Shown: positions 1,124-29,252 of the stretch, one piece after another
Position numbering within the stretch: position 1 is the stretch's first letter
How the letters are laid out: the number at the start of each line of letters is the position of its first letter
Virus record (IMG/VR): IMGVR_UViG_3300036795_000133
Coordinates: 50,085-114,084 of that record
Origin: a virus
Length of the DNA: 64,000 bases
Strand: one strand, 5' to 3'
Translations under genes and position numbers: made by a program
Notes under the pieces: generated by a model
Database searches by the model: none
What the model saw: only the letters and a program-made list of their open reading frames with translations
What the model was told of the DNA's origin: nothing

Positions 1124-1153
1124 GCAAGAGATTCTATCAAGTTTTTCATGGAC

Positions 1154-1756
1154 TTAACTGGTCGCCACGCTCGTCAAATATGTCCACGTAATGGAGTTGA
1201 ACGGGCACACAGAGTTAAGAGTGAGCGGGTAGACGCGCTGCTGCGCGGCCCTGCGGTAGGCGGTCTGCACCTGGCCGGCGGAGATCATGTTCGGCACCTG
1301 GAGGACGCCCGCGTACCCGAACGCGTTCTTGCCGACGATGGCCGCCGCGACGTTGGTGAAGTTCGTCGACAGGGTGAGCACCGACTTGCCGGGCTGCCCG
1401 GCCCCGGCGGCGGTGACGGCGATCGACCCCGCGTTGCCCCAGGCGAGGTTGACGTTGGCCAGCGTCTCCTCGGACATGTTGCAGGTGAACGTGAGGGTCG
1501 CCGTGGTGATCGCGACGCCGACCGGGGTCGGCTGCTCCTCGACCATGATGTTCTGCGTTGTCGGGGCGAAGGTGCTGGTCACTCCGTCGAGCAGCGCCCC
1601 GACGTACGCCCAGCCGAGGCCGGTCCAGGCGGAGCCGACGCCCAGGTTCGCGTCGGACGGGACCGAGGTCCCCACGGCGGCGGTGAACAGGATTCCCGTC
1701 CCGTAGATGACGTTCCCGGACGTGTAGCCCGGCGGGGAGTAAGTCAGGGTGGGCAT
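1154..1756 (-). CDS. Major tail protein
   Basis: 200 aa, beta-rich, GNVIYGTGILF..GWAYVGALLDGVTSTFAPTTQNIMVEEQPTPV. Position between tail terminator and chaperone. Confidence 0.8.
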   Translation of the reverse strand: MPTLTYSPPGYTSGNVIYGTGILFTAAVGTSVPSDANLGVGSAWTGLGWAYVGALLDGVTSTFAPTTQNIMVEEQPTPVGVAITTATLTFTCNMSEETLANVNLAWGNAGSIAVTAAGAGQPGKSVLTLSTNFTNVAAAIVGKNAFGYAGVLQVPNMISAGQVQTAYRRAAQQRVYPLTLNSVCPFNSITWTYLTSVATS

Positions 1757-1757
1757 A

Positions 1758-2090
1758 TCAGGAGGCCTCCTCGATCTTCACGCCCGCGTCGGCTGCCGCG
1801 GTCATCAGCGCTCCCACGGCGCGCTCGGGCACAGGTGCGGGGTCGTTGCCCACGGTGATGCCGCCGTGGGTGAAGGACGTGTGCGGCAGCAGGACGCGGA
1901 GCATCGTCTTGGCCCCGGCCGTCATCTCCGCCCGGATCTTCGCCAGCTCGTCCTCAAGCTCGGCTGCGCGCGAGGACAGGTCATGCGGTGCCGCGGTCGG
2001 CTGCGGCGGTGTAACTTCGGGGAAGTCCGGTGCCGGGGCCGCACCCGGCGCCGGGGCCTGGACCGGGCTCTCCGGCACGTCGGGCGTCAT
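1758..2090 (-). CDS. Hypothetical protein, Pro/Ala-rich N-terminus
   Basis: MTPDVPESPVQAP...; ATG at 2090 overlaps the upstream stop (ATGA coupling). Confidence 0.6.
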   Translation of the reverse strand: MTPDVPESPVQAPAPGAAPAPDFPEVTPPQPTAAPHDLSSRAAELEDELAKIRAEMTAGAKTMLRVLLPHTSFTHGGITVGNDPAPVPERAVGALMTAAADAGVKIEEAS

Positions 2091-2593
2091 CAGGGCACCT
2101 GCGGGGTGAGCTGGTAGAGGCGCACGGCCAGCGTGGTCGTGACGTTGAAGTCGATGCAGCAGTAGCCGACGCCGCTCGGTGACGTCGCGTTGATCTGCCC
2201 GCCCGGTGCCGCGCCGCCGTTGCCGGTGGCGAACTGCGCGCCGTCGGTCTGCGTGAACTGCTGCACCGACCACGGCCCCAGCCAGCCGACCCCGGTGGCG
2301 GGGATAGTCGTGGTGTACGTGCCGAACGGCTGCACCTGGCCGCCGGCCTTCTGGCCGATCAGGTGGTAGGCGGGCGTTGTCGTGGCGCCCGTCCACCAGA
2401 CCAGGATCAGGGTCCCGTTGTTGACGAACTGGACGCCCGACTGGGTGCCGGGCCACGCTGTCGCCCACCCGGTCCCGGTTCCCGCCGCGTCCACTCCGGC
2501 CACCGAGTACGCGCCGAACGTCGCGGAGGTGGCCGCCAGGGAGCTGGCGTTAAAGCTGACGGGTTGCATGGTGACCCGCGTGGTCGCTGTCAT
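2090..2593 (-). CDS. Putative virion structural protein
   Basis: 167 aa, Thr/Gly/Trp-rich beta protein coupled within the tail operon. Confidence 0.55.
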   Translation of the reverse strand: MTATTRVTMQPVSFNASSLAATSATFGAYSVAGVDAAGTGTGWATAWPGTQSGVQFVNNGTLILVWWTGATTTPAYHLIGQKAGGQVQPFGTYTTTIPATGVGWLGPWSVQQFTQTDGAQFATGNGGAAPGGQINATSPSGVGYCCIDFNVTTTLAVRLYQLTPQVP

Positions 2594-3028
2594 CTAGCCC
2601 GCTCCTGTCGTGAATATGTAGTTGCAGACCAGCTCGAAGCGCCGGTCGTTCGGGTCCAGGGGCAGCGCGGAGGGAGGGGGCCCGAGGCGCTGCACGTTGA
2701 GCACGTGGATCCCGTCGACCCGCACCGGGTGCGGGCCGTTGAGGATCGTCCAGTCCAGGAGCTGCGCCGCCGCCTCTGCGCCGAGCGGGTCGTCGGCGGA
2801 GCCCCTCAGCCGCGACTGGAACGACCAGGCATCCGCCGCGCCCTCGTCAGTGACGTAGCCGGGGCCGCCCGTCGGGGTGAGGAACACCGCCTGGTCGGGC
2901 TCGTTGAGGATCTCCGGGCCGGGGTAGAGCGGGTAGCCGCTTTCCTGCGTGCCGTCCCAGCCGGCGGTGGTCAGCCAGTCCATAACGAGCTGCGCGCGGG
3001 GGACGGTAATGAGGGCCGGGGTGGTCAT
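2594..3028 (-). CDS. Tail terminator / head-tail joining protein
   Basis: 144 aa, PDQAVFLTPTGGPG..WSFQSRLRG..DPNDRRFELVCNY; synteny. Confidence 0.7.
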   Translation of the reverse strand: MTTPALITVPRAQLVMDWLTTAGWDGTQESGYPLYPGPEILNEPDQAVFLTPTGGPGYVTDEGAADAWSFQSRLRGSADDPLGAEAAAQLLDWTILNGPHPVRVDGIHVLNVQRLGPPPSALPLDPNDRRFELVCNYIFTTGAG

Positions 3029-3571
3029 CCGCGCCTCCGGCCGCGCCAGCCTGAGCCGAGCGGGGGATGCCCTGCCTGGCCGCGCGGGTTATAGCGCCAG
3101 TACAGCCACCCCTTCAACCGGGCCGGCAGGAACGGGTACAGGAGCCGCGACTGGGCGCGGAGCTGCGCCTCCGTCAGCCTCTCGACCTCCGGTGGCCGGT
3201 CGTAGATGGTCGCCCCGCCGAGCGTGACGGACGGGTGCCCGGAGCGGCGCAGGTGGTTGAACTCCCACGGCGCGTGGAACTTCACCTGGTCGCTCAGGTT
3301 CTCCATTGACTGCGCCATAGCGGCACGGCCTCCGTCGGTCAGCACCGTCCGCGCGTAGAGCGTCAGGTACCTTGCGTATTGGGCAAAGAGAGGCTGCTCA
3401 AGGAATTTTGCTTGACCCCCGCGAGGATGCATGAGGTCGAGCCCTTCATGCTGGTAAGTAATGGGCATAGACCAGAATTAACTGGTCTACGATCAATCGG
3501 CCGGTCATGTCACCAGGCATGCCGGTCATCTTGCGCAGTTCGTCAATGCGCGCTTGAAACGTAGAAGCCAC
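3025..3571 (-). pseudogene. Head-tail connector gene split by a 4-nt duplication
   Basis: GTG at 3571 (RBS GGAAAGGAG) gives MASTFQARIDELRKMTG..VDQLILVYAHYLPA* ending at 3446. A second frame continues YQHEGLDLMHPRGGQAKFLEQPL. Removing one TTAC copy fuses the two frames. Confidence 0.7.
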
Positions 3572-3593
3572 GGGCACCACCTCCTTTCCCTGG

Positions 3594-4154
3594 TCAGCCC
3601 TGGTACAGGGGTCCGCCTGAGTCGGCCCAATTCATGCCCATGGGTGCCCACTGGCCGAGTGGCACGTCTGGTTCCAGCGTCCCTGTGCGAGGATCCAGCC
3701 TCGTATTGCTATTGGCGCCGGTGAAGATATTAGGAATGCGATTAATGACCGCGCCGCCCTCATTCACGCCCATCTCAGGGGCCGGGGCCACGTCGAGGAG
3801 GATGTCGCCGGTGCGGACCGCGTTGAGCATCTGCATCGCATTCGCGTAGGCGATATAAATGGGCGATTGGGGTTCTATAACTTTGTACTTGCCGTAGGTC
3901 TTGGCCGCCCAGAAGCAGGCGAGATCAAGGGTCAGGTCGTGGAGGATGGCGGGCGGCGTCGCCTGCGGGGTGGAGCTGTCGTAGACGTTGCCGGCAAACA
4001 CCGACACGCGGTTGCTCGCCGAGTACAGGGCAAGCTCAAGCTGCGCGTCGGTCAGCTGCGCCGCTGTGCCCGTGCCGGAGTCGGTGCCTGACATGACGTT
4101 CCGGAGGTCGGCTACCGAGGCGTAGAGGGTGCCGCTGGCGACGGGCGTGGTCAT
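3594..4154 (-). CDS. Head-to-tail adaptor (Mu gp36/DUF1320-like)
   Basis: YASVADLR..LELALYSASNRVSVF..PPAILHDLTLDLACFW..AYANAMQMLNAVRTGDILLD. Confidence 0.75.
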   Translation of the reverse strand: MTTPVASGTLYASVADLRNVMSGTDSGTGTAAQLTDAQLELALYSASNRVSVFAGNVYDSSTPQATPPAILHDLTLDLACFWAAKTYGKYKVIEPQSPIYIAYANAMQMLNAVRTGDILLDVAPAPEMGVNEGGAVINRIPNIFTGANSNTRLDPRTGTLEPDVPLGQWAPMGMNWADSGGPLYQG

Positions 4155-4925: not shown

Positions 4926-4936
4926 AAGTCGCCCCC

Positions 4937-5161
4937 TCAGTTGCTCTGCGCGGCGCGCGAGAGGTCGTCGCCTTGGCCGCGCGAGGCCACGGGGATGACG
5001 GCGGACAGGTTGGCGTTTCCGTAGGCGGCCTCGAGCGGCGAGCCGGGCTCGATGTCGACGACCGTCCCGTGGCGGGTGAACGTGGCCCGCTCCGCCCCGT
5101 TGGCGTGCGGATCCCACGTCACGGCGGTATCCGTGAGCACGCGGCGCGGGAACTGGCTCAA
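4937..5161 (-). CDS. Putative virion accessory protein
   Basis: TTG start overlapping upstream stop; RVLTDTAVTW..RHGTVVDIEPGSPLEAAYGNANL; ends in SN. Confidence 0.55.
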   Translation of the reverse strand: MSQFPRRVLTDTAVTWDPHANGAERATFTRHGTVVDIEPGSPLEAAYGNANLSAVIPVASRGQGDDLSRAAQSN

Positions 5162-5784
5162 TTCGAGATCCCCACGCCGAAGCCGCTGGATCCGGTTGCC
5201 GCGTGGACCGCGTAGGGAAGGGTGTTCAGCGGCGAGTACCCGTTCACGCCGGTGGGGGCGACGGTGTTGGCCGCCGCGTAGACGGGGGCGTCGGAGTGGG
5301 CCAGCACCAGGTCGATCGGGTCGAGCCACGTCCAGCACACGGTGCCGGTGTAGGTGACCGCCATGACCGACCCGGCGGGGAACGGGATGCCCTGCGAGTT
5401 CATCGTGGGCGCCTGGACGATGTTGGTCGTCAGCCCGTTGACCGTGATCGCGGAGACCGACCCGCCGCCGAGGAACACCACCGACAGGTCCCGGCCGGTG
5501 TTGTTGGTAGCGGGGACGGTGCTGGCGGGCAGCGCGATCGTGCACTCCGACCAGTACCAGACGGGGGTTGCGACGGTGTACTGCAGCGCGCAGGTGGCGC
5601 CCGCGGGGACCGTCATCATGAACGCTGTCGCTGAGGTGGCCACCGAGGCAGCGGACACCCAGTAGTTCGCCATCGTCGCGCCGTTCGCGCCGACGGACAC
5701 GTAGGCCGTGTTGGAGGTCGGGTTGGTCACGGTGTTGGTGAGCCCGGCGGAGGACGTTGCGGGGACGGCTGGCTGGATGATCAT
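5158..5784 (-). CDS. Putative head decoration/fibre protein
   Basis: 208 aa, Thr/Val-rich, two xTYT..WxW beta modules. Confidence 0.6.
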   Translation of the reverse strand: MIIQPAVPATSSAGLTNTVTNPTSNTAYVSVGANGATMANYWVSAASVATSATAFMMTVPAGATCALQYTVATPVWYWSECTIALPASTVPATNNTGRDLSVVFLGGGSVSAITVNGLTTNIVQAPTMNSQGIPFPAGSVMAVTYTGTVCWTWLDPIDLVLAHSDAPVYAAANTVAPTGVNGYSPLNTLPYAVHAATGSSGFGVGISN

Positions 5785-5793
5785 CCGGGTCTC

Positions 5794-6321
5794 CTAGTTG
5801 CTCAGGCCGTAGTGGGACACGTTGTCTTGGCCGTCGATCCACGCCCGCAGGTTCGAGCTGCCGCCGAGCGCCGCGTAGAGCTGGCCCGCAGTGTCGAGCC
5901 AGAGCGGCTGCCCGGCGAACCAGGTGAACTGCGGGATCGTCCCTGCCTGCCCTCCGGCGGGGGCTGTGGCGGACACGGCAACGGTCATGCTCGACGAACC
6001 GGAGTGCGGGAGCTGCGCGGTCGTCCACGTCCACGCCGGCGAGCCTGTGTAGGTGACCGCGATGGTGCCCCCGGTGAGGACGACAGCGGTTGCCGGGGAA
6101 GAGGTCGCGACGGTGCCGCCGTCGACCGTCACCAGCGTGACCGTGCCGCCGGTGACCGAGACCAGCACGGGGAGCGGGTTGCCGTTGGTCACCGCGGTTG
6201 TCGTCGCCGGGAACGCGGGCGTGACGACCGGGCTGTTCGCCTGGCCCTGGATGATCTCCGACCAGGTAGCAGGCCAGGGGATGGTCACGTTCGACGTGAG
6301 CACGTACCGGCCGAACGTCAT
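5794..6321 (-). CDS. Putative head decoration/fibre protein
   Basis: 175 aa, same beta module (GGTIAVTYTGSPAWTW). Confidence 0.6.
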   Translation of the reverse strand: MTFGRYVLTSNVTIPWPATWSEIIQGQANSPVVTPAFPATTTAVTNGNPLPVLVSVTGGTVTLVTVDGGTVATSSPATAVVLTGGTIAVTYTGSPAWTWTTAQLPHSGSSSMTVAVSATAPAGGQAGTIPQFTWFAGQPLWLDTAGQLYAALGGSSNLRAWIDGQDNVSHYGLSN

Positions 6322-6342
6322 GCGGTCACCTCCCCCTCGCTG

Positions 6343-6972: not shown

Positions 6973-6974
6973 GG

Positions 6975-7538: not shown

Positions 7539-7569
7539 CCGTCACTCCCTGTGTTCGACTCTGTTTTCG

Positions 7570-8481
7570 TTAAACGCCGCTGAGCAGTGCGATTGCCAAC
7601 GGCTGGTCGAGCCCTACGGCACTTGATCGCTGTGTGTCACTACGCCAGACCTTTTTTGATTCTTCTCTATATAGAGGTCCGGCTATGAAGGGAAGCTCAT
7701 CGGCATAGAAGCCGGCCCGGTGCCGCTGCATGACGATCGCGTTACCTGCGGGCACCTGGCGCGAGACGAGCACGTCAAGGTTGAAGATCTTGTTCGGGAG
7801 AACCCCGGTGTACTGGAGGTTCTCCGAGGCGATGTCACCGATGTACGGCGCGGCGAAGGTGCTCGACTGCAGCAGCGTGTTCTTCGTCCCGTGGTTGATG
7901 ATCAGCGTGTCGGCTTCAAAGCCGAGCCACTGCGTCACGCCGGATGGGGAGACGATATTCGCGTTCTCAACCAGGTACACGGCCTGCGCGAGGTCCGACC
8001 GGGTCGTCGCCGAAGCCGACGCCCAGGGATTCGCGACGGCCAGCGTCTGAATTGACGCGTTGGCCACGACGGCGCTGTAGAACGCGGTGTTCCACGAGTA
8101 GACCATCGTGTTCTTGACCTGCAGCAGCTGCCGGGTCACGGGGTCGATGGCCTGCCGGCGCCGCATCTCGTCGCTGACCATGATCGCCATGGCTCGCTCG
8201 TGGCTGAACACGACCCGCGGCACGCCGATGGACGTCGGGACGACCGGGACCTCGCCGAACTCCGGCCGGATCTCCGGGAAGTCGTCGGCGTACAGCGGCG
8301 TGCTCTCCGAGTACCGCACGGCGCCGGAGGGAGCCGCCCCGCCCATCCGCAGGACGGAGTCCATGATGAACTCGTTCTGCGTGATGTCCAAAATCAAGGC
8401 GGGAATGACCAGCGGGTCCTTGAGGAGCTCGCTTACGGTAAGCCGCGGGGAATCGGAGTAACCCCGTGCGCCAGTGGGCAT
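7570..8481 (-). CDS. Major capsid protein
   Basis: 303 aa, LTVSELLKDP..EIRPEFGEVPV..DTLIINH..LDVLVSRQVPAGNAIVMQR..VGLDQPLA; follows protease/scaffold and decoration gene. Confidence 0.85.
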   Translation of the reverse strand: MPTGARGYSDSPRLTVSELLKDPLVIPALILDITQNEFIMDSVLRMGGAAPSGAVRYSESTPLYADDFPEIRPEFGEVPVVPTSIGVPRVVFSHERAMAIMVSDEMRRRQAIDPVTRQLLQVKNTMVYSWNTAFYSAVVANASIQTLAVANPWASASATTRSDLAQAVYLVENANIVSPSGVTQWLGFEADTLIINHGTKNTLLQSSTFAAPYIGDIASENLQYTGVLPNKIFNLDVLVSRQVPAGNAIVMQRHRAGFYADELPFIAGPLYREESKKVWRSDTQRSSAVGLDQPLAIALLSGV

Positions 8482-8493
8482 CTGCCGTTCCTC

Positions 8494-10438: not shown

Positions 10439-10439
10439 C

Positions 10440-11579: not shown

Positions 11580-11640
11580 AGCATACAGGCAGGCAGCGGC
11601 TAAATGCACGTGCATCCGGCGCTTGCATCTGCACGTGCAC
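11580..11640 (-). promoter_or_regulatory. Putative late promoter with TGCACGTGCA/GTGCAGATGCAC motif and -10 TATGCT
   Basis: ATGCACGTGCAT at 11604-11615, TGCATCTGCACGTGCAC at 11624-11640; TATGCT on minus strand at 11580-11585. Confidence 0.55.
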
Positions 11641-11708: not shown

Positions 11709-12479
11709 TCAGAACAGCGTCAACGGCGGCTCGGTCGTAACATCGGCGGGGACGAGTTCGTAGACCGCATCGAGAACCTTGACGACTTCTTCGTCCGCAT
11801 GACCGAAGATCCGGAACCACTCGGATATCCGGCTGTCTCGCTGCTCAAAGGCGGCCGCCCACCGGAACGCGAGCGTGGCCTGCATCCATGCCTCAGTGCG
11901 CAGGTCACCCGGCTGCCGCCAGATGCAGCGGCATCCGCCAGTGTCCCATCCGCGGCGCGCGGCCCTACGCCGCGCCATGCGCACGAAGATCGAGTCGATT
12001 GTCTCGGTGGTGAATCCGACCTTCAGTCCCTGTGCGACCGGGAACCAGATGGCGTACACGGACGGCTCGCCCTTCTGCGCGCGGCGGCGGGTTCGCGCCG
12101 CTTCCGCCCGGCGGTCCCGATCCCGGTATGCTGCTTCCGCCCGGCGGTCCCGGTACGTTTCGGCTTGCAGGCGCTGGTACTCGGTCCGACACCTTCCGGG
12201 ACGGTTGCACACTGGGAACTGGGATGCAGTTGGCTGACCGCATAGCGCGCAGCCATGAGCGGGACGGTCCCGAAATGCGCCTACCTGCCCGTCTCCTGCT
12301 AGACGCCTGCTTTCTTTCCGGCACTTCCCCGGCCGGTTGCACATAGGGAACTTGGACCTAGTTGGGAGGCCACAGATGGAGCAGGGATGCTCTGGACCGG
12401 CCCTATAACCTCTTAGCAAGGGGATCCTTCCGGTGAGATCGGAATGGGGTTCTCTAGGCCCGGTTCGGTGGTAGGACAC
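11709..12479 (-). CDS. Putative GIY-YIG (T5orf172/MUG113-like) endonuclease with two Cys4 repeats
   Basis: CSICG..MCNRPGKC and CALCG..VCNRPGRC, then SVYAIWF..GLKVGFTT. Confidence 0.55.
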   Translation of the reverse strand: MSYHRTGPREPHSDLTGRIPLLRGYRAGPEHPCSICGLPTRSKFPMCNRPGKCRKESRRLAGDGQVGAFRDRPAHGCALCGQPTASQFPVCNRPGRCRTEYQRLQAETYRDRRAEAAYRDRDRRAEAARTRRRAQKGEPSVYAIWFPVAQGLKVGFTTETIDSIFVRMARRRAARRGWDTGGCRCIWRQPGDLRTEAWMQATLAFRWAAAFEQRDSRISEWFRIFGHADEEVVKVLDAVYELVPADVTTEPPLTLF

Positions 12480-12588
12480 CGGCCGGGCCGCTATCGAATA
12501 TCTTAGCGGTTGCAGCTGACATTCTCAGTTGGAGCCGCGCTAGACATGTGCCCGGCCTCTCACATGCCCGTGCGGGATAATGGGGGGC

Positions 12589-13095
12589 ATGGATAACGGC
12601 GCGCAAACTACCTGTCACACTCGCGGCGAGACCCGCGTCCGCTGGCGCAAACGGGAAGACGGCCTGGAGGAGTGCGTCCAGTTCGTCCCCGGCTACAACT
12701 GCCCCGAGCCCGGCGGGCACGGCCACGGCGTGCACAGCATGGAGGTCCGCTGGTTCCTGCGCGGCCCGGACGGCGCGGTCGTGCTCTCAATGGCCACGGA
12801 CTTCGTCCCCGGCGAGCGCAGGCCCGGTCACGGCCTGTCTCCGAGCGGCCTGAACGAGAACTGGGCACACTACCCGAGTGGTTTCGGGCTCCAGTACCAC
12901 TCCCGCGCCCCGCGCTACGAGGGACATGACGCTGAGGACGGCTGCGATCTTCTCGGCGGCCCGTGCTACTGCGACATGTGGCTTAGCGGCGCGGATGAGC
13001 CCGTGAAGCGCTTCACCGGCGAGGGTGAGCAGGTCATCTGGGACGCGCTGGAAGAGGCGTACGCAAGCCTTGCGGCGGAGACCTCGCGCTCCTAG
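12589..13095 (+). CDS. Hypothetical protein, probably leaderless, opposite to the head operon
   Basis: GATAAT-7 nt-ATG; coherent 168 aa ORF. Confidence 0.55.
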   Translation: MDNGAQTTCHTRGETRVRWRKREDGLEECVQFVPGYNCPEPGGHGHGVHSMEVRWFLRGPDGAVVLSMATDFVPGERRPGHGLSPSGLNENWAHYPSGFGLQYHSRAPRYEGHDAEDGCDLLGGPCYCDMWLSGADEPVKRFTGEGEQVIWDALEEAYASLAAETSRS

Positions 13096-17689: not shown

Positions 17690-18256
17690 GCGAACCACAC
17701 CTTCACCGTCAGCCAGAGGGACAGCATGTTGTCGTGCGCCCGGCATGCCAGGGTCGAGCCTTCCGGGCCGTCGCCGCGCCGGACATGGCCCCGGTTGTCG
17801 AACCAGCAGAGCACGGCCAGAGGCCATGGCATGCACGTCATGGCTACTCCCAGCCGATTCCGGTCGGCGGCAGGTTCCCGGCGGAGACGGGGGCCATGCT
17901 GTCGTCTGCCAGGACGGGCTCAACGTGCTCCAGCGCCCCGCAATGCACTGGGACGCTCAGGCCGACCGGGTCTGAGCGGTAGACCTCCACGAGTGCCGTG
18001 CCCTCGTGAATGGCGAGGATCTTGCCGCTCAGCTTGACGAAGTCGCCCGGCTCGGGGTCTTTGATCACGGTCGCGCCTCCGTCTCGTAACCTTCGGCTTC
18101 GTCTGCCAGCTTGCGGAATTCGTTGGCCAGCCATAGCAGTTCCTCGCCGCCCGGCGCGGTACTGCCGCTGCGAACGCTCCGCTCAACGTGCTGCTTGTAC
18201 TCGTCCTCGAGCGCGCGGGACCGCCTGCGCAGCGCGGCGATGACCTGAGCGCTCAC
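17686..18256 (-). other. Three small hypothetical ORFs
   Basis: Coupled ORFs at about 17686-17841, 17844-18071 and 18065-18256. Confidence 0.4.
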
Positions 18257-18864
18257 GGCAGATTCCCCGACATTGTCGGCGGCTCGCCGTCGCACACGGC
18301 CGCAGCAGCGCGGCTGAGCCCGGTCACCGTCTTCTGGCCGGCAAGCCACTCGTAGCGGTACTTCACCTCGCGCGCGTCATCCAGCGCGTTGTGACTGCGG
18401 GTGCCGGGCATCGACGGCACCTGCTTCTCCCTGCCGGAACGCTCAAGTTCCTGCCGCAGGTCGTGCGTCCACATCGGGATGCCCTCGGGAAGGTCGATCA
18501 TGCGGCCCCATAGCTGGCAGAGGACGACATGGTCGTAAGCGCCCCAGTCGGCCCAGAGCTGCGGGTCCGGCGCGGCGAGGATGAACGCGCCGACCTCGGC
18601 CGCGATCTGGGCGCGCGGCTTCACGCACGCATCGGCGTAGTTGAACAGCCAGCGCTTCGGCATGTCGAAGATCCACGGGCCGTGCGCCTTCGGCAGTGAC
18701 GGGACGACGTTCTCCATCAGCCACGGGTTCTTGCGGATCCGCCGGATCGGCATGTCGCGGTTGACCGCGTAATACTCGCGGCCATCGTCCGCAACCAACC
18801 CGATCGAGATCAGCGCGATCGTGGACCCGTCCTCAAGGAATTCCGTGTCGTAATAGCATCGCAT
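18253..18864 (-). CDS. DEDDh 3'-5' exoribonuclease, RNase AS (Rv2179c)-like
   Basis: YYDTEFLEDGSTIALISIGLVADDGREYYAVN..LWADWGAYDHVVLCQLWG..HNALDDAR. Confidence 0.85.
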   Translation of the reverse strand: MRCYYDTEFLEDGSTIALISIGLVADDGREYYAVNRDMPIRRIRKNPWLMENVVPSLPKAHGPWIFDMPKRWLFNYADACVKPRAQIAAEVGAFILAAPDPQLWADWGAYDHVVLCQLWGRMIDLPEGIPMWTHDLRQELERSGREKQVPSMPGTRSHNALDDAREVKYRYEWLAGQKTVTGLSRAAAAVCDGEPPTMSGNLP

Positions 18865-19596
18865 TCAGGCAGCCCTCGCATATCTCGCGCCGATGCTCGG
18901 CAATAGCTTTCCCCCAGGCCAGGGCGCTACCGCTCTACATCTGCACGCCAAATGCACGGAACCTGGGAACCCGATATCCGGCATCGCGGTAGCGTAGAAA
19001 TTCCGGCCATTTGCGTTTTTACATTCCGGGCTCGTGCGGTTATCGAGAACCGCTTTCCACCCAAGGAGCGGCCCGTATTCCAGTGCTGCCATGTCGGTAC
19101 TCATCGCCGCCTGTGCCCGGCTCCACATCGCCTGCCGGTGCAGGAAGTAGAACCGCTGCTCCCGGGTGACCTGAGCATCCATCGCGGCCGTCACCGGCTC
19201 GCCCTTCGACCGCGCCTCCTGCGCCGCGTCCGCCACCCGCTTGCTCGCCGCCACCACGTACTGCGCCCGCCGTGCCGCGTTCATCCGCGACACCTCCTCC
19301 GACGCCGCCCCGATAGTCCCGGTGACGGGGGGCGGGTTCGGCATGACGATCCTGGACAGGACCATCAGCATCCCCAGCCAGAACAGCGCCGACAGGACGC
19401 CGAGCTTGAACCGGAGTTTCAGGGTGGCCACCACGGCAGCGGCGGACGCAGCGGTAAGCAACAGCCCGGCAAGGGGAAGCGCCATCGCGGCGAGGGCAGC
19501 GGGCACAGTCGCCGGGGGAACCGTCTTCGGCGGCGGAGGCCGGCGGGGCGGAGGCTGCTGCCTGGGCTGCTGCTGAGGCGGGAGCGGAGTCGTCAC
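18865..19596 (-). CDS. Head morphogenesis protein (Mu gpF/SPP1 gp7-like)
   Basis: LGWKAVLDNRTSPEC..NG..PG.VH..CRC. Confidence 0.75.
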   Translation of the reverse strand: MTTPLPPQQQPRQQPPPRRPPPPKTVPPATVPAALAAMALPLAGLLLTAASAAAVVATLKLRFKLGVLSALFWLGMLMVLSRIVMPNPPPVTGTIGAASEEVSRMNAARRAQYVVAASKRVADAAQEARSKGEPVTAAMDAQVTREQRFYFLHRQAMWSRAQAAMSTDMAALEYGPLLGWKAVLDNRTSPECKNANGRNFYATAMPDIGFPGSVHLACRCRAVAPWPGGKLLPSIGARYARAA

Positions 19597-19852: not shown

Positions 19853-20419
19853 CTACGCCGCCACGTCCAGCGGTCCGCAGGTCCCGCAGGAGGCCGAGGC
19901 GACGTTGCCCACCGAGAGGTGCGGGCAGGAGAAGGTATGCGGGCGGCCGAGGGATGACCGGAGTGCCCGCGGCTCGCCTGCGCGGCCACTTCCCTCGATG
20001 ACGCCCTCGGGTCGCTGCACAGCAACCGGCAGGCTGCTGACGACTGCACTGCCTTCGCGCCGCCACGCGGGCGACCCGATACGCAGGCTGAGCACGCCGT
20101 GCCGCAAGAGCGCGGGCATCAGCGCCGCCGTCAGGCGCTCAAGGGCCTCAGCGGGGACCGGAACCGGCTCGTCCTCGCCCTCAACGGCGAGCTCGAAGAC
20201 CCGAGGCTCCGCGATCTCCCGGTCAACCAGACGCCTGATCCACGATCCCACGGTGACGCCCTCCCTGAACGCGCGCTCCTTGACGGCCTCGACGACCTCC
20301 GGCGCGAAGCGGACGCTCGTCATGCTGGCGAGGTTCTGCCCGGTGCGCTTGCGGCCGGGCCTAGCGGGCACCCGGTTCGTGGGGTCGGCGTAGAACTCGT
20401 ACGCCTCGCGGTCATCCAC
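19853..20419 (-). CDS. Ribbon-helix-helix (CopG/antitoxin-like) protein
   Basis: MTSVRFAPEVVEAVKERAFREGVTVGSWIRRLVDRE. Confidence 0.65.
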   Translation of the reverse strand: MDDREAYEFYADPTNRVPARPGRKRTGQNLASMTSVRFAPEVVEAVKERAFREGVTVGSWIRRLVDREIAEPRVFELAVEGEDEPVPVPAEALERLTAALMPALLRHGVLSLRIGSPAWRREGSAVVSSLPVAVQRPEGVIEGSGRAGEPRALRSSLGRPHTFSCPHLSVGNVASASCGTCGPLDVAA

Positions 20420-21326: not shown

Positions 21327-22487
21327 TCACTGGGCATCACCTCCCTCTTTTTGTGCGCCTTCCGGCGACAGCTCGCCCGGCTTCGCGTCCACGTCGTCCA
21401 CGAGCTCGACCCGCCACGCGGCGATCGTGACGGTAACGCCGGGCATCTCGCCCCGTCTCGGGTGGACTGTGTACCCGTCGACCGTCGCGAAGTCGAACGG
21501 CTCGCCGTCGATGTAGAGGCGGGATGCGGCGCCGGCGCCTTCCCGCACGACCCGGAGCGTCTTCGCGATCTTGTACGGGGTCACTGCGCGGCCCCCGTGC
21601 CCCGCCGCGCCCTGGCCCGGTGGGAGGGTGACGGCGCCGCGGCGGCCTTCGGGGCAGGCAACGGCCGCCATTCCGCCGCGACCGCCTCAAGGTAAGCGGC
21701 ACCTAGCGCCGCGGTAAGCTGCGCGTCCCTGCCCGCGAGGCCGCCCGCAGTCGCCGGGACAGGCTTCCCGTCCTCGTCCGTGACGTTCCACGAGATCAGC
21801 GAACGGCCGAGCGCCTCAGTCACGGACGCGGCATCCCGCATCATCCCCATCGGCGTGCGCCGCGCCGTGACCTCAAGGCCTGCGTACCTCGTGCCGGAGA
21901 AGTCCAGCTTGAGCGGTTCCCGGCCCGAGAGGAACGAGCCCGGCGCGAAAATGCTTGTGCTCACCGTCCTCCCGTCCTCTCGTCTCGCTCGGACTTGGCG
22001 AGCCTCCGCAGAAGCTCGTCGTTCTGGTCCATGAAAGCGGCCAGCTGTGCACGGAACCGAGGGTCAACCTCCCCGGCGAAGTCGTGACCGGCGTCGAACC
22101 GGGCGAAGACCGCGGCCGGGTCCTCGTCGTCCTCGTAGAAGCCCGCAGCTTCCTCCGGGGTCACCGTGAACTCTTCTCGCCCAGCATCCCGGACGCGTGC
22201 CACAGCCGCTCCGCCGCGCGGAACCGCTTGCGGTCAACCAGCCAGATAGCGGCGCCGTCGGCAGCGCGCGTCACGGCCAGCCGGGCGCGGACGCGGCGGG
22301 GCAGCGGAGTGCGCAGGCGCGGTTGCCTGTCCGCGACAGCACCGAGGGCCTCCGCGAACTGCTCAAGCTGGCGCTCCGGCAGGCGACCCGGCGGTATCAA
22401 CTGGTCGCCGGGGCTCAGGAAGGCGGGAACTGCGTCACTATCCCGGGTGCCTCGCAGGATCATCCCGCCGCGCGCGAAACGGGTCAC
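21327..22487 (-). other. Four small coupled ORFs downstream of portal; 21581-21964 is chaperone-like
   Basis: 21327-21584, 21581-21964 (SLISWNVTDEDGKPVP), 21961-22203, 22161-22487. Confidence 0.45.
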
Positions 22488-24051
22488 TTCCCCAGCCTCC
22501 CGTTCAGCCCGAGGGACGACGGTACCGGCGGAGGAGACGGTGCCCCGGTCGGCGGCGGGGGGATGTTCACGCCGCCCCGCGCCGCTGCCTGCTGCGCGAT
22601 CGCCGTCCCCGCCGACGCGAGACCCGACATGGCGCCCAGCGACCCCGCCACGTCCGGCGGCATCCCCGGCGGCGGGTTAGCCGTCATCTGCTCCGTCCGC
22701 TGCGAGATGGTGTCCTTCAGCGCCTTGTGGACCTGGTCGACGTCGAGCTGCAGGACGCTCGCCATCCGCTCCGTCAAAAGGTCTACGACGCCGATCGGGA
22801 TGTGAAGTGCGGGGGCCGCCACAATCTGCCCGAACAGGGTCATCAGGAGCTGCACCTGCTCGTCCTGGAGCGGGCCGAAGACCGCCTTCGGGAATGCGGC
22901 GCTGGCGCCGAAGTTGAGCATCACCAGGGGGCGGAGTACGTCATACGAGAGGGACTCGGCTATCTCCTTCGCCACCGCCTGGCGGGACTTGAGGAAGAAG
23001 TCGCTCTGGTCCTGAGACAACGCATAGGAACCCTTGCCTCCGGTGGCGACACCCGTCAGGCCGAGGAAGCCGGCGAGGACGGACATGATCTGCCAGTTCT
23101 CGAGGAAGTTCAGGCAGTCGGTGAAGAACGCGCCGGCGTCGGGGCTCTGGATCGACTCGAACATCTTCTGGCCCTCGATGGGGTGCGGGAGTCCCACGAT
23201 CCCGGACGCCTTGAGCTGAGAGATGTCGTCAGCGTTGCGAGTTGCCTCGGGCTGATCATTTCCGTACACAATCAAACGGGGCATTGACTGTGATTCCAAG
23301 AAATTCAACCACAAGTACAAGATTTTCAACTTCGTTTCGTACACCCAGTAAGCCGTTGACATCTCGCTGAGACCAGTCAGCGGCTCGCGGTGCTTGCCGT
23401 GGGTGTACACGTAGCTGCGGATCTTCGGAACATCTACGTAGCCGGGAACCTTCTGCTTGCTGCTCAGCATCAGGTTCCCGCCGAACAGCCACACCTGCTG
23501 GCGGAAGCCGTTCGGCTCCGCGGTCCGGTCGTTGTACCTCGCCTGGCAGGTGGCGGGCGGGCGGTAAGCGATCTTCCGGTAGATGACCTTGCCGTCTGCC
23601 TCGCGGATTCCCCAGACTTTCTCGAAGAAGGCTCTCTTAAAGATTTGCCCGGTACAAACCTGGCCGATCAGCTCAGTGACCGGCGTGGCCATGCCGCCGT
23701 CCGTATCGGGGGTCATCAAAACCGAGCGGCAGAACTCGGCCTCCCCGTTGTCGCCGAGCGACTTCTCGATGCTGAAGTCCGCCTGGCGGATAGGGAGGGT
23801 GAGGACGTTCTCAAGCGACGCGCAGACGCCGTCGCGAGACAACATCGTCGCCATGTCACGAGACGACCACTCTCCGTAGTCAAAGACATCCCCGGCGCCG
23901 TTGACTAGTAGTAGGCGAACAAACGCTGTCCGTAATCAAATTGCGTACCGATCTCGGCGCCCAGAAGCGCACTCCTGCCGCCAGGGCCCTTGGAGCCCTT
24001 CGGGGGGAGGTCGGGGAAGTCGATGATCTTCGCGGAGCGAGTGTCGACCAT
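22484..24051 (-). pseudogene. Portal protein (Mu gp29/DUF935-like), interrupted near its 5' end
   Basis: ATG at 24051 after RBS GGAGG gives 48 aa ending QRLFAYY* (TAG 23905-23907). Body continues in another frame (NGAGDVFDYGEW..RDMATMLSRDG..LTLPI) to 22484. Confidence 0.75.
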
Positions 24052-24084
24052 ACCCAAGCATCACCTCCCGCCCGCCGCTAGCTC

Positions 24085-24126
24085 GTGCATCTGCACGCGC
24101 GTCCGCAAGAGCTGGATGCACGTGCA
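24085..24126 (-). promoter_or_regulatory. Repeated regulatory motif upstream of portal
   Basis: GTGCATCTGCAC at 24085-24096 and ATGCACGTGCA at 24116-24126. Confidence 0.55.
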
Positions 24127-24218
24127 GCTGATGAGCCAACGATACAGGCGAGACGGGTGAGGGCATAGCGAAGGGCCAGGGACGCGCGTCCGTGGCCCTT
24201 CGCGCCGAAGCTGGGCGG

Positions 24219-24713
24219 TCAGGCTTCCCTGGCCTCCCTCTCCGCCCGCTCGCGCTCGCGCCGGCGCTGCTGCCCGGCCCTCATGTTCTCCAGCGCCTGC
24301 TCGTTACGCCAGCCAGTGCCCGCGGCATTCGTGTTGCCCTTCAGGCTGTCGCCGATCTGCTCGCGCTGCTCGGCAGGCATGGGGCCACGCGCCTCCGCTG
24401 CGGCCTTCTTCTGCTCGGACATCTTGGCGCGCGACTCCGGCGTGTGCCTGCGCCCGGTAGAGGCCGCCCGGATCTTCTCGATAGCTTCCGGCGTGTGCTT
24501 GTCATATCCGCCGTGGCACTTCTTGCACAGCGGGACGTAGTTCATGACGTCATCAGGGTCGGTGTCGTGAACGTGCGCCCAGTCATGGGCTTGCTTGTCG
24601 ATGCCGGCCCGGGTGCACTGGATGCACTTCCGGAGCTTCGCCTCGCCGCGCTCGGCGACGTTCCGCCGGTGGCGGCGCTGGTACTCCCTCTCCTCGTCTG
24701 GTGTCCTGGCCAT
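24219..24713 (-). CDS. HNH endonuclease with NUMOD3-like repeats
   Basis: CIQC..HDWAHVH..NYVPLCKKCHGGYD then HTPEAIEKIR, RRHTPESRAKMSE. Confidence 0.75.
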   Translation of the reverse strand: MARTPDEEREYQRRHRRNVAERGEAKLRKCIQCTRAGIDKQAHDWAHVHDTDPDDVMNYVPLCKKCHGGYDKHTPEAIEKIRAASTGRRHTPESRAKMSEQKKAAAEARGPMPAEQREQIGDSLKGNTNAAGTGWRNEQALENMRAGQQRRRERERAEREAREA

Positions 24714-25086
24714 CAGGCGTCATCCTCGAGGAGGGCGGTCGGGGTCAGGCTGACCGCCAACACTTTGCCGTCGTCCGGGCCGCCGAGGACGCTGACGAAC
24801 AGGGTCATGCAGTCGCGGAAGCTGCCTACGGCGCCTTCCCGGTTGAACCGCCCGTCCGCCTCGATCGCGTCCTCGATCAGGCCGAGCAGGTCGGCCATCG
24901 CCTGGACGTGCGCGGTACTGTCTTGCATGGTTCGTCTCCTAGTGCTCATAGGCGGCGGGCAAGTCCCTCGGGCGGTGCATCATCACCGTTCCGGGGGGCG
25001 TGAAAACCTTGCCCCTCGAACGCCAATTCTATCAGACTGTCACGTCTTAGCGCGTGCGGACACCGGACATCCGCTATCATTCGGTC

Positions 25087-27577
25087 ATGGATCGATGTCC
25101 GACATGCCACGGGCCGGTGCCGCCGCTGAAGACGTGCCCCGGCTGCGGGAATGAGTTCTACCGCACCGAGGCGGGCCGGTCGGATACCGAGTGCTGCTCG
25201 CAGCGGTGCGCGGCGCGGGTCCGCAAGCGCAGGCAGCGAAAGAGGGAGGCGGCGGCGGGATGACATGGGACATGAGCAGGCGAGACGGCCCGTTCTGCGA
25301 GGGATGCGAGGCTGTCCACGTAGCCGGCCGCGCCTGCCCCGGGTGCGGGACCAAGACGTGCCGCCGGTGCGGGTGGTGCTGCGAGCACGCGGACTGGACG
25401 GTGACGCCCGACCCGAGCGAGGACGCGCCCGTGGTGACCAGCAACCGGCGGAAGCAGCGGGAGGAGCGGTAATGCCGCAGCACGAGCTAACGAAGGACGG
25501 CGCCACCTGGTTCTGGTTCCCTGGCAAGGCGGAAGGGGACGAGCCGTTCGCCGGCTTCTGGGTGCCGAATATCCAGTGCGACGGCTACATCCCGGCCATT
25601 GACGGGATCGGCTTCAGCACCGAGGCGCAGTGCCAGGCGTGGATCGACGAGGCCGTGAAGGCAGCACCAGGCCAGCTGGCGGCAGTTGCCGCCCGTCCCG
25701 GCTACGGGCGCGGCGGGCAGACGCAGTCGCGGGCGGTGCACACGGCGGTGCAGGAGATCCTCGACCTGACCAGCCACGGCACGGACCTCGTCAAGAGCCA
25801 TGAGTTCTTCCGGGTGCTGCGCGACCTGTACCTGGCGGGAAAGGCGGCGGGATGACGGCGCGCGAGAACTGGGAGCGCGAGATAGCGCGGCTCTGGCCTG
25901 AGATCCTGCGCAGTCCTGCCGCCTACGCGGCAGTCGGCCTGGCAGAGCAGGTGTTCGCCGAGTACGACGCCGACCTGAAGGGAACGCGGGAGACGGTGAC
26001 AGACCTGGCGGAGAAGTGCCCTCTGCTCGCCAGCTCCGGGTCTAAGGTCAGCGTGCACGCGGGAACACGGGTCGACTGCCCTGTCTGCGGTTACGGTGAC
26101 ACGCCATGACAAGTCACGAGGAACCACTGCCGCCCATGCCGCCAGGATGGATGCCCGCTACCGAGGAGCAGGTGGCCGCCCTCCGCGAGGGCATCAACAG
26201 GGAGATGCTGCCGGTTGGCCTTGACCTTGCCTGGCTGGCCGTGAACGGTGCGCTCGCGGGGGTCGCGGAGATCATCGCCGAGCGGAGGCGGCAGGTTGAG
26301 CAGCAGGACGAGGTGCTCGGCAAGCCCAGTCTGCCTGACGCCGCCGAGGCGGAACTGTACTTCGGGGACTACGCCAAGGCCGCCGCGCTGCTCGCCGCCG
26401 AGATCGACAGGATGACGGCGGCCGAGGAGGAACAGCGATGACGTGGAGCCTGGACTTCGCCCGCGACCCGGCGCGCGTAGCCGCCCTGTCGGAGCCGTCG
26501 GCACTGCCCCGCTGGGACGGCATCGGGTCATCCGAGGGCATGGGAACCGAACCGCGCCTGGTGCGCGCAGGTGCCCGGTTCACCGGCGGGCCGGGCCGGG
26601 AACGGGAAGCGGCCGAGGCGTGGGCGTTCGAGATGAAGGCGTACTTCAAGCGGGGCGTCGGGGAGCAGCCCCAGGTCACCTACGCGAACGGCACCTACAC
26701 GGTTATCGGCCTGATCCAGACGACGCATCCCGGCGACCGTCCCCGCGCGGACGGGATCGTGTGGTTCACATGACCCGTGGGCAACCGTGAAGGCCGGGCG
26801 TGATTCCCAGGCCGGGCGCTGGCTCTGGCGCCACCTGCCGCACCGCCACCGCGGCGGAACCGGAGGTGCCAGCGTAACCCACCCGTTCTTCGAGCGGTTC
26901 CCTGATCCCCAGGCCTCGGTTCCCCGTTCCGTGAGCGGGCACCTTGCCTGGACGGCAGGAGACGCCGTAGCCGAGTGCGGTTCGGAAGCCGTAGTGACCG
27001 CGGACGGCGACCTTCACGCACTGCGCCCGGTTCACCTTGTCGCCGTGGACGACATGGCCTCGTTCGCGGTGGCCCTGGAACTGTCTCCGGAAGCGGCGGA
27101 GGCACTGGCCGCGCGCCTCGCGGACGCGGCCCGGGCGGTGCGGGAGCGCCTGTCGTGACCGCCGGCAGGGAATGCTGCGGCCTGCCGATGAGCACCCTGG
27201 ACATATTCGGCATCCGGCTTTACCGGTGCATGTACCGCGGTCATCACCCGCTGGTCTTCCGGAACCTGGGCACGGGCGAGGAACTCACCGAGAGCTACGA
27301 CGACGGCAGAGACGGCGGGCTGGAGTGGACGTCGCACTACGGCAGTGACAAGTGAGGGGGATTGGCGATGAGACTGGGCAAAGCGCGCCGGCGACCGCTG
27401 GAAGCACACGCGTGCCGCAGGTGCGGGGCAGAAGCAGGGCAGCCGTGCGTGACAGCATCCGGAAGGGCTGCGGACTGGCCGCATGCCGAGCGGTACAACG
27501 ACGCCGATAAGGCGGCCGGGCGGGTGCGCGCTCCGCTCATGGAGGGCGCGAGACTACCCTCTACCGCCAGCTCCTGA
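25087..27577 (+). other. Plus-strand island of about 9 small coupled ORFs between terminase and portal
   Basis: TATCAT-6 nt-ATG at 25087; ORFs overlap by ATGA/GTGA; the first two are Cys-rich. Confidence 0.55.
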
Positions 27578-29252
27578 CATTTCCCCGCACCGGCAGGTCC
27601 CGGTCATCGGCAGGAGCGAAGCCGTCGAGCCCGTCCAGTCCCCACGGGGCGTCCTCGGGGACATCGGCCGCGCGGCCCTGGATTTCGCGCATGCGGCGGT
27701 GGGCTTTCGTTTCCTCGGCCACGCCCATGTCGGCGAGGTCGGCTGAGCCGGCCCACTTCCGCACGCTGCCCGGTGAGGCGTCGCCGAGGTGCGGGACGAA
27801 GCTTTGCACCACGGCATCGCCGTCGTCCGTTGACCTGCCCAAACGCTTGTAAATGTCCTCTTTGCGCTCAACCTGGATCTTGCCGCCGGAGGTGACCTTC
27901 CACTGCGGTGCCGAAAGGTCGCCTAGGAGCATCTCGTCGTCCGGGAAGCAGATGTCCGGGTCGCTAGACGGGTCAAGCGCCTGCCTCATCGTCCACCACG
28001 CCTCACTCCGGCGGTTCGCGAAGCCGAACTCCCTTGTGCTGTCTTTTGCCTTGGACCCGCGGGAGGCGTTGAACGCCAGCACCTTCATGTGCAACTCCCG
28101 CAGCCGGTCAACCACGCCCGCACCGATACCGATCACGTCGACTACCGCGGTGTAGGAGTCGTCGGCCTCGAGGATGCCCTTCACGCGCCCGGTGGTCTGC
28201 ATCGTGTCTTCCTTCACCGACCGGCGCAGCTCGGTGATGACGGGGCCGTTGCGGAGGGCGAGGACGGTGCGGTCCTGGCCGGTGCGGGCCACATCCACCC
28301 CGACGACACGGGGCCTGCCCGCGTTCGGCCGCCCGGCCTCGTCCCAGGCGTGCCAGCGGGCTACCGCCGCCTCCGCCCACGCGAGCGGGATGACCGAGTC
28401 CTCGTCGCTGGCGTAGAACTCGCCCAGGACGCGGTTCTGGTAGATCGCCGACGCGGTACCCCACTGCCGGGCGCGCTGCTCCGCCCACTCTTCGGTGATG
28501 CGGCCCGCGTCCATGGCGTCGTCGAGCGTGACGTGGACCGGGTGCCAGTCCTCGTAGCCGGGGCGGCGGGTGCAGATGTCGTAGAAGCGGCCCTGCGGCT
28601 GGCCAGGCGTGGACAGCGCCAGGGCGAACGCCTCGGTGCCGCCCTCGCCGGAACTGGAGAACGCGCCCTCGCATGCGTCGAACGTGCCCGAGGGGATGGC
28701 CTTGGCCTCGTCGTATACGAACATCAGCGAGTCGGCGTGAGCGCCCTCGATCAGGGCCGCGTTAGCCGACGCGGCAGCGAAGGCGGCACCGTGGGCAAGC
28801 TTGAGGTTGATGTTCTGCAGCTCGTTGGCCCGGGAGAACGGGCGGCCGTCGCGGACCTTGTCCCAGCGGAGCTTCCCGGCCCACTTGTGGATCTCAGGCC
28901 AGGTGTATGCAGTCAACTGGTGCCATGACCCGGCGGTCGTGACGACTTTCCAGTCCACCCCGGCCGCGTCCCGCGTCAGGGCGAACCACAGGACGGCTAT
29001 CGCAGCCTGAGAACTTTTCCCCAATCCATGGGGGCCCCGGACGGCCTCGCGCTTGCGCTCCGGGAGCGAGCCGAGGATCTCTTCCTGGTAGACCGTCAGG
29101 CCGTCGCCGCTACCCCAGTCGATGCAGTCATGCGCGAATCCGACCGGGTCGTCGTAGTACCGGGTGATCCCGTGCTTGATCTTCGCAGCGCGGCGCTGGA
29201 GCTCCAGCAGGTACCGCAGGCGGTCAGGGGGTGCCTGAACCAGCGGGGTCAT
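27561..29252 (-). CDS. terL: Terminase large subunit
   Basis: Walker A RGPHGLGKSS, Walker B MFVYDEAKAI, coupling motif ALSTPG, nuclease VVGVDVARTGQDRTV and DDGDA. Confidence 0.95.
   Translation of the reverse strand: MTPLVQAPPDRLRYLLELQRRAAKIKHGITRYYDDPVGFAHDCIDWGSGDGLTVYQEEILGSLPERKREAVRGPHGLGKSSQAAIAVLWFALTRDAAGVDWKVVTTAGSWHQLTAYTWPEIHKWAGKLRWDKVRDGRPFSRANELQNINLKLAHGAAFAAASANAALIEGAHADSLMFVYDEAKAIPSGTFDACEGAFSSSGEGGTEAFALALSTPGQPQGRFYDICTRRPGYEDWHPVHVTLDDAMDAGRITEEWAEQRARQWGTASAIYQNRVLGEFYASDEDSVIPLAWAEAAVARWHAWDEAGRPNAGRPRVVGVDVARTGQDRTVLALRNGPVITELRRSVKEDTMQTTGRVKGILEADDSYTAVVDVIGIGAGVVDRLRELHMKVLAFNASRGSKAKDSTREFGFANRRSEAWWTMRQALDPSSDPDICFPDDEMLLGDLSAPQWKVTSGGKIQVERKEDIYKRLGRSTDDGDAVVQSFVPHLGDASPGSVRKWAGSADLADMGVAEETKAHRRMREIQGRAADVPEDAPWGLDGLDGFAPADDRDLPVRGNVRSWR

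Follow-up and report, generated by a model that had tools for sequence, protein, structure and literature searches.

AT-rich recoded patches and TTA- or stop-led putative coding gaps in the virion genes of a high-GC soil actinomycete phage, most of them at or beside insertion sites of HNH nucleases and inteins

The DNA analysed here, called the window, is a stretch of 64,000 nucleotides (nt) covering bases 50085-114084 of the complete 124,995-bp metagenomic virus record IMGVR_UViG_3300036795_000133, which has direct terminal repeats. The GC content is 69% and in genuine genes G or C occupies about 85-95% of third codon positions (this fraction is referred to as GC3). From position 1 to about 39,000 the genes, including the virion module, are carried on the minus strand (Table 1). 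Within this module the genes for the major capsid protein (MCP), the head-tail connector and adaptor, the portal, a Mu-F-like minor head protein (gpF) and the large terminase (TerL), and more mildly the major tail gene, contain short patches in which codons ending in A or T are concentrated (AT3-rich), and inside two of the patches the reading frames of the portal and the connector are broken by short insertions. Genes for HNH endonucleases, or inteins, are present or absent among relatives at or beside most of these patch sites. We consider it on balance probable that the patches represent alleles of homing sites and that nuclease attack has diversified them, as in the MobA/gene 60 system of phage T4.

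A megablast search of 25 kb against GenBank phages gave no match, and the capsid protein was 35-40% identical to actinophage capsids. About 200 related contigs were found in IMG/VR, all with a GC content of 65-74%, and relatives were binned with metagenome-assembled genomes of Actinospica, Streptosporangiaceae and Kineosporiaceae. Relatives are cited by L numbers where they need to be told apart, and c5105 is the closest relative contig. Scans of the window and of the whole 125-kb genome found no tRNA genes, ruling out phage-encoded tRNAs for rare codons. Genome-wide, TTG accounts for 108 of 2,720 leucine codons, and TTA was found in frame at 3 of 33,634 codons, each time no further in than codon five of a predicted gene.

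Significance of the patches was evaluated by shuffling, gene by gene, the codons of sites that encode the same amino acid. Over the whole genome 371 twenty-codon windows had a GC3 of 0.55 or less compared to 70±21 expected under this synonymous shuffle, and 8 of 162 genes reached p<=0.004. The clustering of AT-ending codons exceeds the synonymous-shuffle expectation and reflects lineage, not protein constraint. A preliminary description of this DNA, made by eye, had listed AT-rich patches in conserved virion genes; it was confirmed in part, most of the sites it named being clear. The head-tail region it gave as 3400-3900 resolved into a connector patch at 3358-3468 (p=0.004) and two stretches of the adaptor; the capsid patch, put at 7560-7700, had a minimum GC3 of 0.25 (p=0.002); and the portal patch put at 23250-23350 was confirmed (p=0.008), as was its quoted codon string with five TTG codons, which is exact. 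The portal site given as 23880-23945 falls in an AT3-rich core at about 23860-23960, and both frame breaks lie inside patches as had been claimed. The gpF patch was clear as well, with a GC3 of 0.63 compared to 0.94 mid-gene, but p<=0.05 was not reached in the within-gene shuffle. A clear TerL dip at 28995-29042 is slightly offset from the 28900-29030 named. Other sites were weaker. At 23620-23670 of the portal GC3 was lowered only mildly (0.60-0.73 vs 0.83-0.85), and the dip at the tail 3' end (about 1130-1245) was mild too (p=0.018). The second TerL site, 27830-28100, had no third-position dip (GC3 0.73-0.87 vs about 0.80-0.88 in relatives); its lowered GC sits in codon positions 1 and 2. 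Apparent low GC3 in the open reading frames 421-1149, 1758-2468 and 4937-6034 and in the first ~90 codons of 15047-17923 was rejected as a wrong-frame artefact.

Table 1. Virion genes, AT-rich patches and inserted genes in the window (window coordinates).
Feature	Position	Strand	Basis or remark
Free-standing HNH homing endonuclease gene	449-1123	-	phrog_3593, E=1.6e-34; 5' end AT-rich
Major tail gene	1154-1756	-	PHROG/Pfam
Tail 3' end	1160-1245	-	mild GC3 dip
Connector and adaptor genes	2594-4154	-	PHROG/Pfam
Head-tail connector gene	3571->3025	-	
Connector 5' part	3358-3571	-	AT3-rich; GC3 0.45, p=0.004
Head-tail adaptor gene	3594-4154	-	
Adaptor 3' part	3594-3883	-	low GC3 at 3684-3749 and 3824-3883
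Major capsid gene (MCP)	7570-8481	-	PHROG/Pfam
MCP patch	7600-7725	-	last ~40 codons of gene; AT3-rich, fast-diverging
Exoribonuclease-like gene	18253-18864	-	Pfam Rv2179c-like E=1.6e-9; PHROG RNase H E=5.9e-54
Mu-F-like minor head gene (gpF)	18865-19596	-	PHROG/Pfam
gpF patch	18865-19092	-	3' third of gene
Portal	22484-23854 plus upstream piece	-	PHROG/Pfam
Mid-portal patch	23228-23330	-	codons ~176-209, five TTG codons
Portal 5' region	23860-24051	-	ATG at 24051, 48-codon piece, 8-nt gap, body start; core AT3-rich
HNH/NUMOD3 endonuclease gene	24219-24713	-	PHROG HNH and homing endonuclease matches; Pfam NUMOD3
Large terminase (TerL)	27561-29282	-	PHROG/Pfam
TerL Walker-A (P-loop) patch	28995-29042	-	codons 81-96; reads CAT GGA TTG GGG AAA AGT TCT

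The patches diverged quickly between relatives. The MCP protein is 88-97% identical among 80 relatives. In the MCP patch GC3 was 0.33 compared to a mean of 0.79 in relatives; over codons 258-292 it was 0.43 in the studied phage and 0.49-1.00 in the 80 relatives, and outside the patch 0.77-0.99. Nucleotide identity to the studied phage was 0.82-0.90 over the remainder of the gene and 0.65-0.8 within the patch. Against c5105, with 97% protein identity, nucleotide identity dropped from above 0.9 to 0.63 exactly at the patch, where both phages are AT-rich with different sequences. The junction of connector and adaptor behaved likewise. The last ~40 adaptor codons were unrelated to those of c5105, to which identity was 0.35-0.5 at 3546-3716 and 0.7-0.9 further into the adaptor. 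Both portal patches were local identity minima (0.46-0.61) against four relatives. Mid-portal GC3 was 0.47-0.60 vs 0.89-0.91 in 79 relatives, and here the studied phage, L002 and L003 read ESQSMPRLI where others read ENMALQRLV. GC3 was also reduced in gpF (0.63 vs 0.79-0.93 in most relatives), in the TerL P-loop patch (0.53-0.67 vs 0.84-0.91) and at the tail 3' end (0.73-0.80 vs 0.94-0.97 in 46 relatives), next to which a deeper GC dip at 1020-1160 corresponds to the spacer and 5' end of an inserted HNH gene. Divergence peaks at gene ends beside insertion sites. The patches change fast and differently from lineage to lineage and so do not represent a conserved signal; neither sigma-70-like sites nor common repeats were found inside them.

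The direction of base change was scored against the consensus of the relatives at synonymous third positions. In the MCP, 16 of 33 patch sites had changed from GC to AT compared to 21 of 266 sites elsewhere, and in gpF 19 of 47 compared to 9 of 78. Outside the patches C<->G swaps predominated. The MCP patch changes (C>T 5, G>A 5, C>A 4, G>T 2) had no strand bias, and the portal and gpF showed the same pattern. With C>T equal to G>A and about 40% transversions, strand-specific C-to-T deamination is excluded as the main cause, and the localised C-to-T mutagenesis offered as one origin in the preliminary description was not borne out. The pattern fits any process that alters a GC3-saturated sequence. 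A mechanism resembling diversity-generating retroelements was also dropped, as the changes are not adenine-specific; no reverse transcriptase or template repeat turned up, neither having been specifically searched for.

Insertions of selfish elements were mapped at the patch sites. The free-standing HNH gene next to the tail patch separates the major tail gene from the conserved gene that follows and is missing from c5105, which has 14 nt in place of window 428-1159, and from most relatives; eight other relatives carry different inserts of 0.77-3.2 kb at this site. Directly after the MCP stop codon, 5 of 80 relatives carry a gene of 1.5-1.6 kb whose product combines a Cys-cluster with HNH, and those of L124, L118 and L125 match Pfam HNH/HNH_5 above the cut-off. 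At the adaptor/connector junction c5105 has an HNH-AP2 gene where the studied phage has its largest low-GC region. The inserted genes are lower in GC than the core genes. Separately, in thirteen relatives (L110-L116, L091, L136, L154, L146 and L152 among them) the interval from the MCP to the following gene holds an additional 250-390 nt, at the site occupied by the 1.5-kb HNH gene in others; remnants or small genes are possible explanations.

An interval of 167 nt separates the HNH/NUMOD3 gene from the portal 5' piece downstream of it, and portal-adjacent homologs were found only in loci with portal gaps. The 5' two-thirds of the nuclease gene are 83-99% identical to the gene of L069 (positions 24400-24950), compared to 60-68% identity between the two portals, which shows that the nuclease gene was transferred horizontally between diverged phages. 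The 3' part of the gene (24193-24400) does not align with L069, and it looks as if the C-terminal part, presumably the DNA-binding domain, was swapped onto a conserved catalytic core.

Inteins mark two further sites. In the TerL P-loop of L015, L017 and L018 an in-frame insert of about 145 amino acids follows GLGK. The L015 insert ends in THN/S and matched the DnaB mini-intein chains 6rix and 6bs8 in a sequence search of the PDB (E=9e-38), and a Pfam search with it gave no match. This P-loop occurs in three states: GC-rich with an intein, AT-rich and uninterrupted (the studied phage and L043), and with a TTA gap (L008 and L069). The tape-measure gene of the studied phage itself has an intein junction, AAWAHEM/C, and the last 40 extein codons before it have a GC3 of 0.3-0.6. 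The gpF patch is abutted by the exoribonuclease-like (3'-5') gene, followed by the gene for a 958-aa head protein. This exoribonuclease-like gene is specific to the studied phage, with no homolog in the interval between gpF and the next gene of any relative. Gene order around gpF varies in another respect, as gene 19853-20419 stands upstream of gpF in the studied phage, and L004 and L008 have its homolog on the downstream side.

The two frame breaks were characterised by frameshift-aware alignment of protein to DNA. In the portal, 48 codons run from the ATG at 24051 to TAC TAC and are followed by the 8 nt TAGTCAAC (23900-23907), after which the conserved GAGDVFDYGEW... resumes in a different frame. 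The connector reads TAC/TTAC/CAG, with a 4-nt gap, TTAC, at 3454-3457. Close by, an in-frame 9-nt insert (TTA ATT CTG, 3473-3481) closes a 9-bp hairpin of -19.3 kcal/mol (z=-2.2); structure at the portal gap was not unusual (z=+0.8). Gaps were present in 37 of 80 portal loci, with one to three inserts of 4-15 nt each, distributed over about seven sites within 30 codons, and the canonical portal protein was restored in every case once the inserts were skipped. Gaps of 7 nt led by TTA were also found in TerL of L008 (GGA/TTAAGGA/CTG) and L069, and the connectors of the studied phage, L091 and L169 carry gaps with the same grammar.

This grammar was evaluated on 37 distinct portal alleles. The gap started with TTA or a stop codon in 34 of them (null 3%), and in 29 the last three inserted bases matched the preceding codon at two or more positions (null 17%). 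Comparison of the landing codon with the take-off codon gave synonymous pairs in 14 alleles and identical pairs in 8; in the studied phage the pairs are TAC to AAC in the portal (2/3 match) and TAC to TAC in the connector (exact). Some inserts are tandem duplications, namely the 4-nt gaps TTAC TTAC (connector) and TTAT TTAT (L002 and L014) and an imperfect one of 8 nt in L024. Segments lying between two frame-breaking gaps had 42, 36 and 200 differences at codon positions 1, 2 and 3, with 169 synonymous vs 43 nonsynonymous codon differences, and several of them lack any possible start codon. Purifying selection together with the missing start codons means that gap-flanked segments must be decoded in the canonical frame. 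Assembly error was considered as the source of the frame breaks and rejected because identical gap alleles were recovered from different, independent samples (L013/L015/L017/L018 and L071/L072/L075/L081). The breaks that had earlier been taken for frameshift scars are present, but a better reading is that of coding gaps led by TTA or a stop codon, as proposed for the phiHau3 terminase, and ribosomes probably have to skip the insertions.

Gaps and AT-richness go together in the portal. Core GC3 was 0.64 in alleles with gaps compared to 0.88 in gap-free alleles (24 vs 35 distinct alleles, p=7e-9, a statistic that ignores phylogeny), and the contrast held after subtracting the GC3 of the downstream gene body. 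A genome-wide scan of GC3 periodicity for further TTA-led gaps returned mostly wrong-frame noise and missed the known sites, which lie in low-GC3 patches. Outside the genes treated above, another low-GC3 patch was noted at 32194-32253 (p=0.004), the 5' end of gene 31660-32253, with a candidate TTA-led 11-nt gap, TCG/TTATGGCACCG/CAC, at about 32201.

Of the three origins put forward in the preliminary description, shaping by homing endonucleases is best supported by the comparative sequence data. We propose that selfish nucleases have colonised the virion module of this family of actinomycete phages, in the form of free-standing HNH genes placed between conserved genes and of inteins within such genes. 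The nucleases would recognise and cut insertion-free genomes within the 50-200 bp of conserved gene beside each hot spot. Recurrent attack would diversify these target stretches through gene conversion with nuclease-bearing genomes as donors, through selection for cleavage-resistant variants that preserve the protein, or through error-prone repair of the breaks. With about 90% of third positions G or C, nearly any protein-preserving change lowers GC3, and the footprint is an AT-rich, fast-diverging patch. The insertions of 4-15 nt led by TTA, the rarest codon, or by a stop would be a second way of breaking the target on the same alleles, probably tolerated as ribosomes hop from the take-off codon to the matching landing codon. 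The 4-nt tandem duplications fit the fill-in of staggered cuts. At the finer level, selection for immunity, co-conversion and mutagenic repair are all candidate mechanisms.

The closest known parallel is in T4, where the HNH gene mobA, a diverged region of homology and the 50-nt bypass insert of gene 60 constitute one mobile element, the insert prevents self-cleavage, and bypass cassettes are AU-rich and open with a stop or hungry codon, their take-off and landing codons being matched (bioRxiv 10.1101/2022.08.31.505936). The loci described here share with it an HNH gene beside an essential gene, a diverged adjoining stretch and a stop- or hungry-codon-led insert with matched codons. They differ in gap length (4-15 nt, not 50) and in having about seven sites within 30 codons and 37 alleles. 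They share no homology with the T4 cassette; the genes are the portal, connector and terminase of actinomycete phages, and both immunity and bypassing are putative here.

Gaps of this size were proposed in 2013 for the terminase gene of phiHau3, where they are 7-10 nt long and led by UUA (PMC10732093). Mass spectrometry of the product in E. coli, with UAA in the place of UUA, supported bypassing there, and UUA-led gaps were reported in 3 of 100 terminase genes, those of phiHau3 and the StrepC.1 and S. catenulae prophages; the word homing does not occur in that paper (PMC10732093). Our gaps resemble these in that a short UUA-led block in an essential virion gene of a high-GC actinomycete phage can be removed to restore the protein, and in that a stop can substitute for UUA. 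Unlike those of phiHau3, they occur in the portal, the connector and the TerL P-loop, are highly polymorphic and lie in AT3-rich patches at nuclease and intein hot spots.

Nuclease genes between conserved genes are known from the seg and mob homing endonucleases of T-even phages and from ICP1, where they stand at boundaries of genetic exchange (PMC2790892, PMC2330249, PMC10448857). Our loci are alike in that the presence of a nuclease varies between conserved genes and that the flanks are locally diverged and exchanged; the collapse of GC3 in a high-GC genome paired with coding gaps was not found described in a limited literature search. The intein sites recall the known homing sites in terminase and DnaB genes, with a class-3-like mini-intein after TerL GLGK in relatives, the tape-measure intein and AT3-rich extein flanks. 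Unlike such sites, TerL of the studied phage is intein-free and has the recoded site only, and the mini-intein of the relatives has no endonuclease domain.

Several observations weigh against diversification by nuclease attack. A clean co-conversion tract was not seen, and the tract of high identity between the studied phage and L069 stops inside the HNH gene, short of the portal. In the close MCP clade, carriers of the homing endonuclease gene (HEG) had a patch GC3 of 0.54-0.69, no more AT-rich than non-carriers (0.49-0.97). This fits patches left by, or resistant to, nucleases and leaves immune alleles belonging to HEG carriers unsupported; the homing-endonuclease origin given in the preliminary description is borne out in part. 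The studied phage itself has no HEG after the MCP, and the gene beside the gpF patch is not recognisable as a homing-type nuclease. The mid-portal patch is the only one with no insertion polymorphism nearby (79 relatives). Gap-bearing portals belong mostly to one clade and the allele comparisons ignore phylogeny. Identical MCP blocks of 36-47 nt in common between the studied phage and L097, L118 and L117 are only suggestive as traces of exchange, and MCP pairs with near-identical bodies but differing patches, or the reverse, were not found at strict thresholds.

The alternative that survives best, though we think it unlikely, is that the patches are functional contexts for recoding or translation speed, in which rare codons ending in A or T and AU-rich mRNA slow ribosomes or limit structure, enabling bypassing or bldA-like tRNA timing, with the nucleases as bystanders. 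It would account for the gap-bearing portal alleles being the AT3-rich ones, it draws on AU-richness and hungry codons as features of T4-type bypass cassettes and on the connection that the phiHau3 model makes between UUA and host growth stage, and it suits a phage without tRNA genes of its own. However, four patches of the studied phage are gap-free, the MCP 3' end (the strongest), mid-portal, gpF and TerL; the patches diverge fast instead of being conserved; and GC3 reaches 0.9-1.0 at these sites in many relatives whose gene order is the same.

Actinobacteria possess Ku/LigD end joining, and a distinctly unlikely alternative is that error-prone repair of repeated breaks, with no selection for immunity, exposes the universal bias from GC to AT and leaves small duplications. 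The GC to AT changes on both strands, transversions included, and the tandem duplications of 4 and 8 nt, as expected from fill-in of staggered cuts and ligation, are in its favour. Against it, nearly all surviving insertions follow the grammar of a TTA or stop lead with a matched landing codon, which indicates strong selection on what persists. This alternative overlaps diversification by nuclease attack and does not exclude it.

Ordinary mosaic recombination, with segments derived from distant phages of lower GC3 or carried along with accessory genes and the nucleases uninvolved, we regard as quite improbable. The amino-acid signature that the studied phage shares with L002 and L003 at mid-portal, the insertion specific to the studied phage beside the gpF patch and the lower GC of inserted genes speak for it. 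Yet all of the ~200 sampled relatives fall at 65-74% GC, no donor with matching patches was found, and across many lineages patches of differing sequence are found at the same gene ends. Escape from host CRISPR or restriction, the patches covering protospacers or other attacked sites, would likewise yield protein-preserving diversification, but it predicts neither the placement at HNH and intein hot spots nor the co-occurrence with TTA gaps and is very improbable. Least credible of all are localised C-to-T deamination, to which several C>T changes (TTG, AAT, GAT) might point but which conflicts with the strand symmetry and transversions above, and embedded promoters or ribosome-binding regions, since, although some patches precede the start of the next gene, none has a sigma-70-like site or common repeat, the AT-richness is missing in relatives with the same gene order and patches lie up to 190 nt away from the next start codon.

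Diversification by nuclease attack can be carried further, to a version that we advance tentatively and hold to be possible but somewhat doubtful. AT-rich recoding and TTA/stop micro-gaps would then be two arms of one strategy of immunity against homing nucleases that is widespread in actinomycete phages. Portal, connector and terminase would routinely be expressed by short ribosomal hops, T4 MobA/gene 60 would exemplify a general rule, and virion production might need a host bldA-type tRNA.

If nuclease attack is the cause, local collapse of GC3 in a high-GC phage would be a cheap, sequence-only marker of homing-nuclease action that would aid the annotation of metagenomic phages and explain mosaic boundaries. 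The hot spots supply dozens of natural, very short gap alleles in essential genes, where earlier reports comprised three terminase genes. The link of the gaps with nuclease and intein insertion sites suggests that disruption of a target site gives rise to them, for which T4 MobA is the demonstrated case, and the question of why coding gaps exist becomes experimentally testable. Gap-bearing portals and connectors will be annotated as broken genes. The compositional footprint is new within the known biology of homing endonucleases, and the coding gaps greatly extend a phenomenon of three genes.

Two further features of the window were noted. A repeat with the core motif GTGCATCTGCAC (plus strand) occurs at 11612-11638, 24074-24100 and 31059-31085, just 5' of the starts of minus-strand genes, the portal 5' piece among them. 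It does not overlap the AT-rich patches and is a candidate phage promoter or operator. Between the divergent genes at about 11709-12479 (minus) and 12580-13095 (plus), a stretch of ~480 bp (12120-12600) has no codon periodicity and a GC content of 0.58-0.65, and may be a regulatory or non-coding region.

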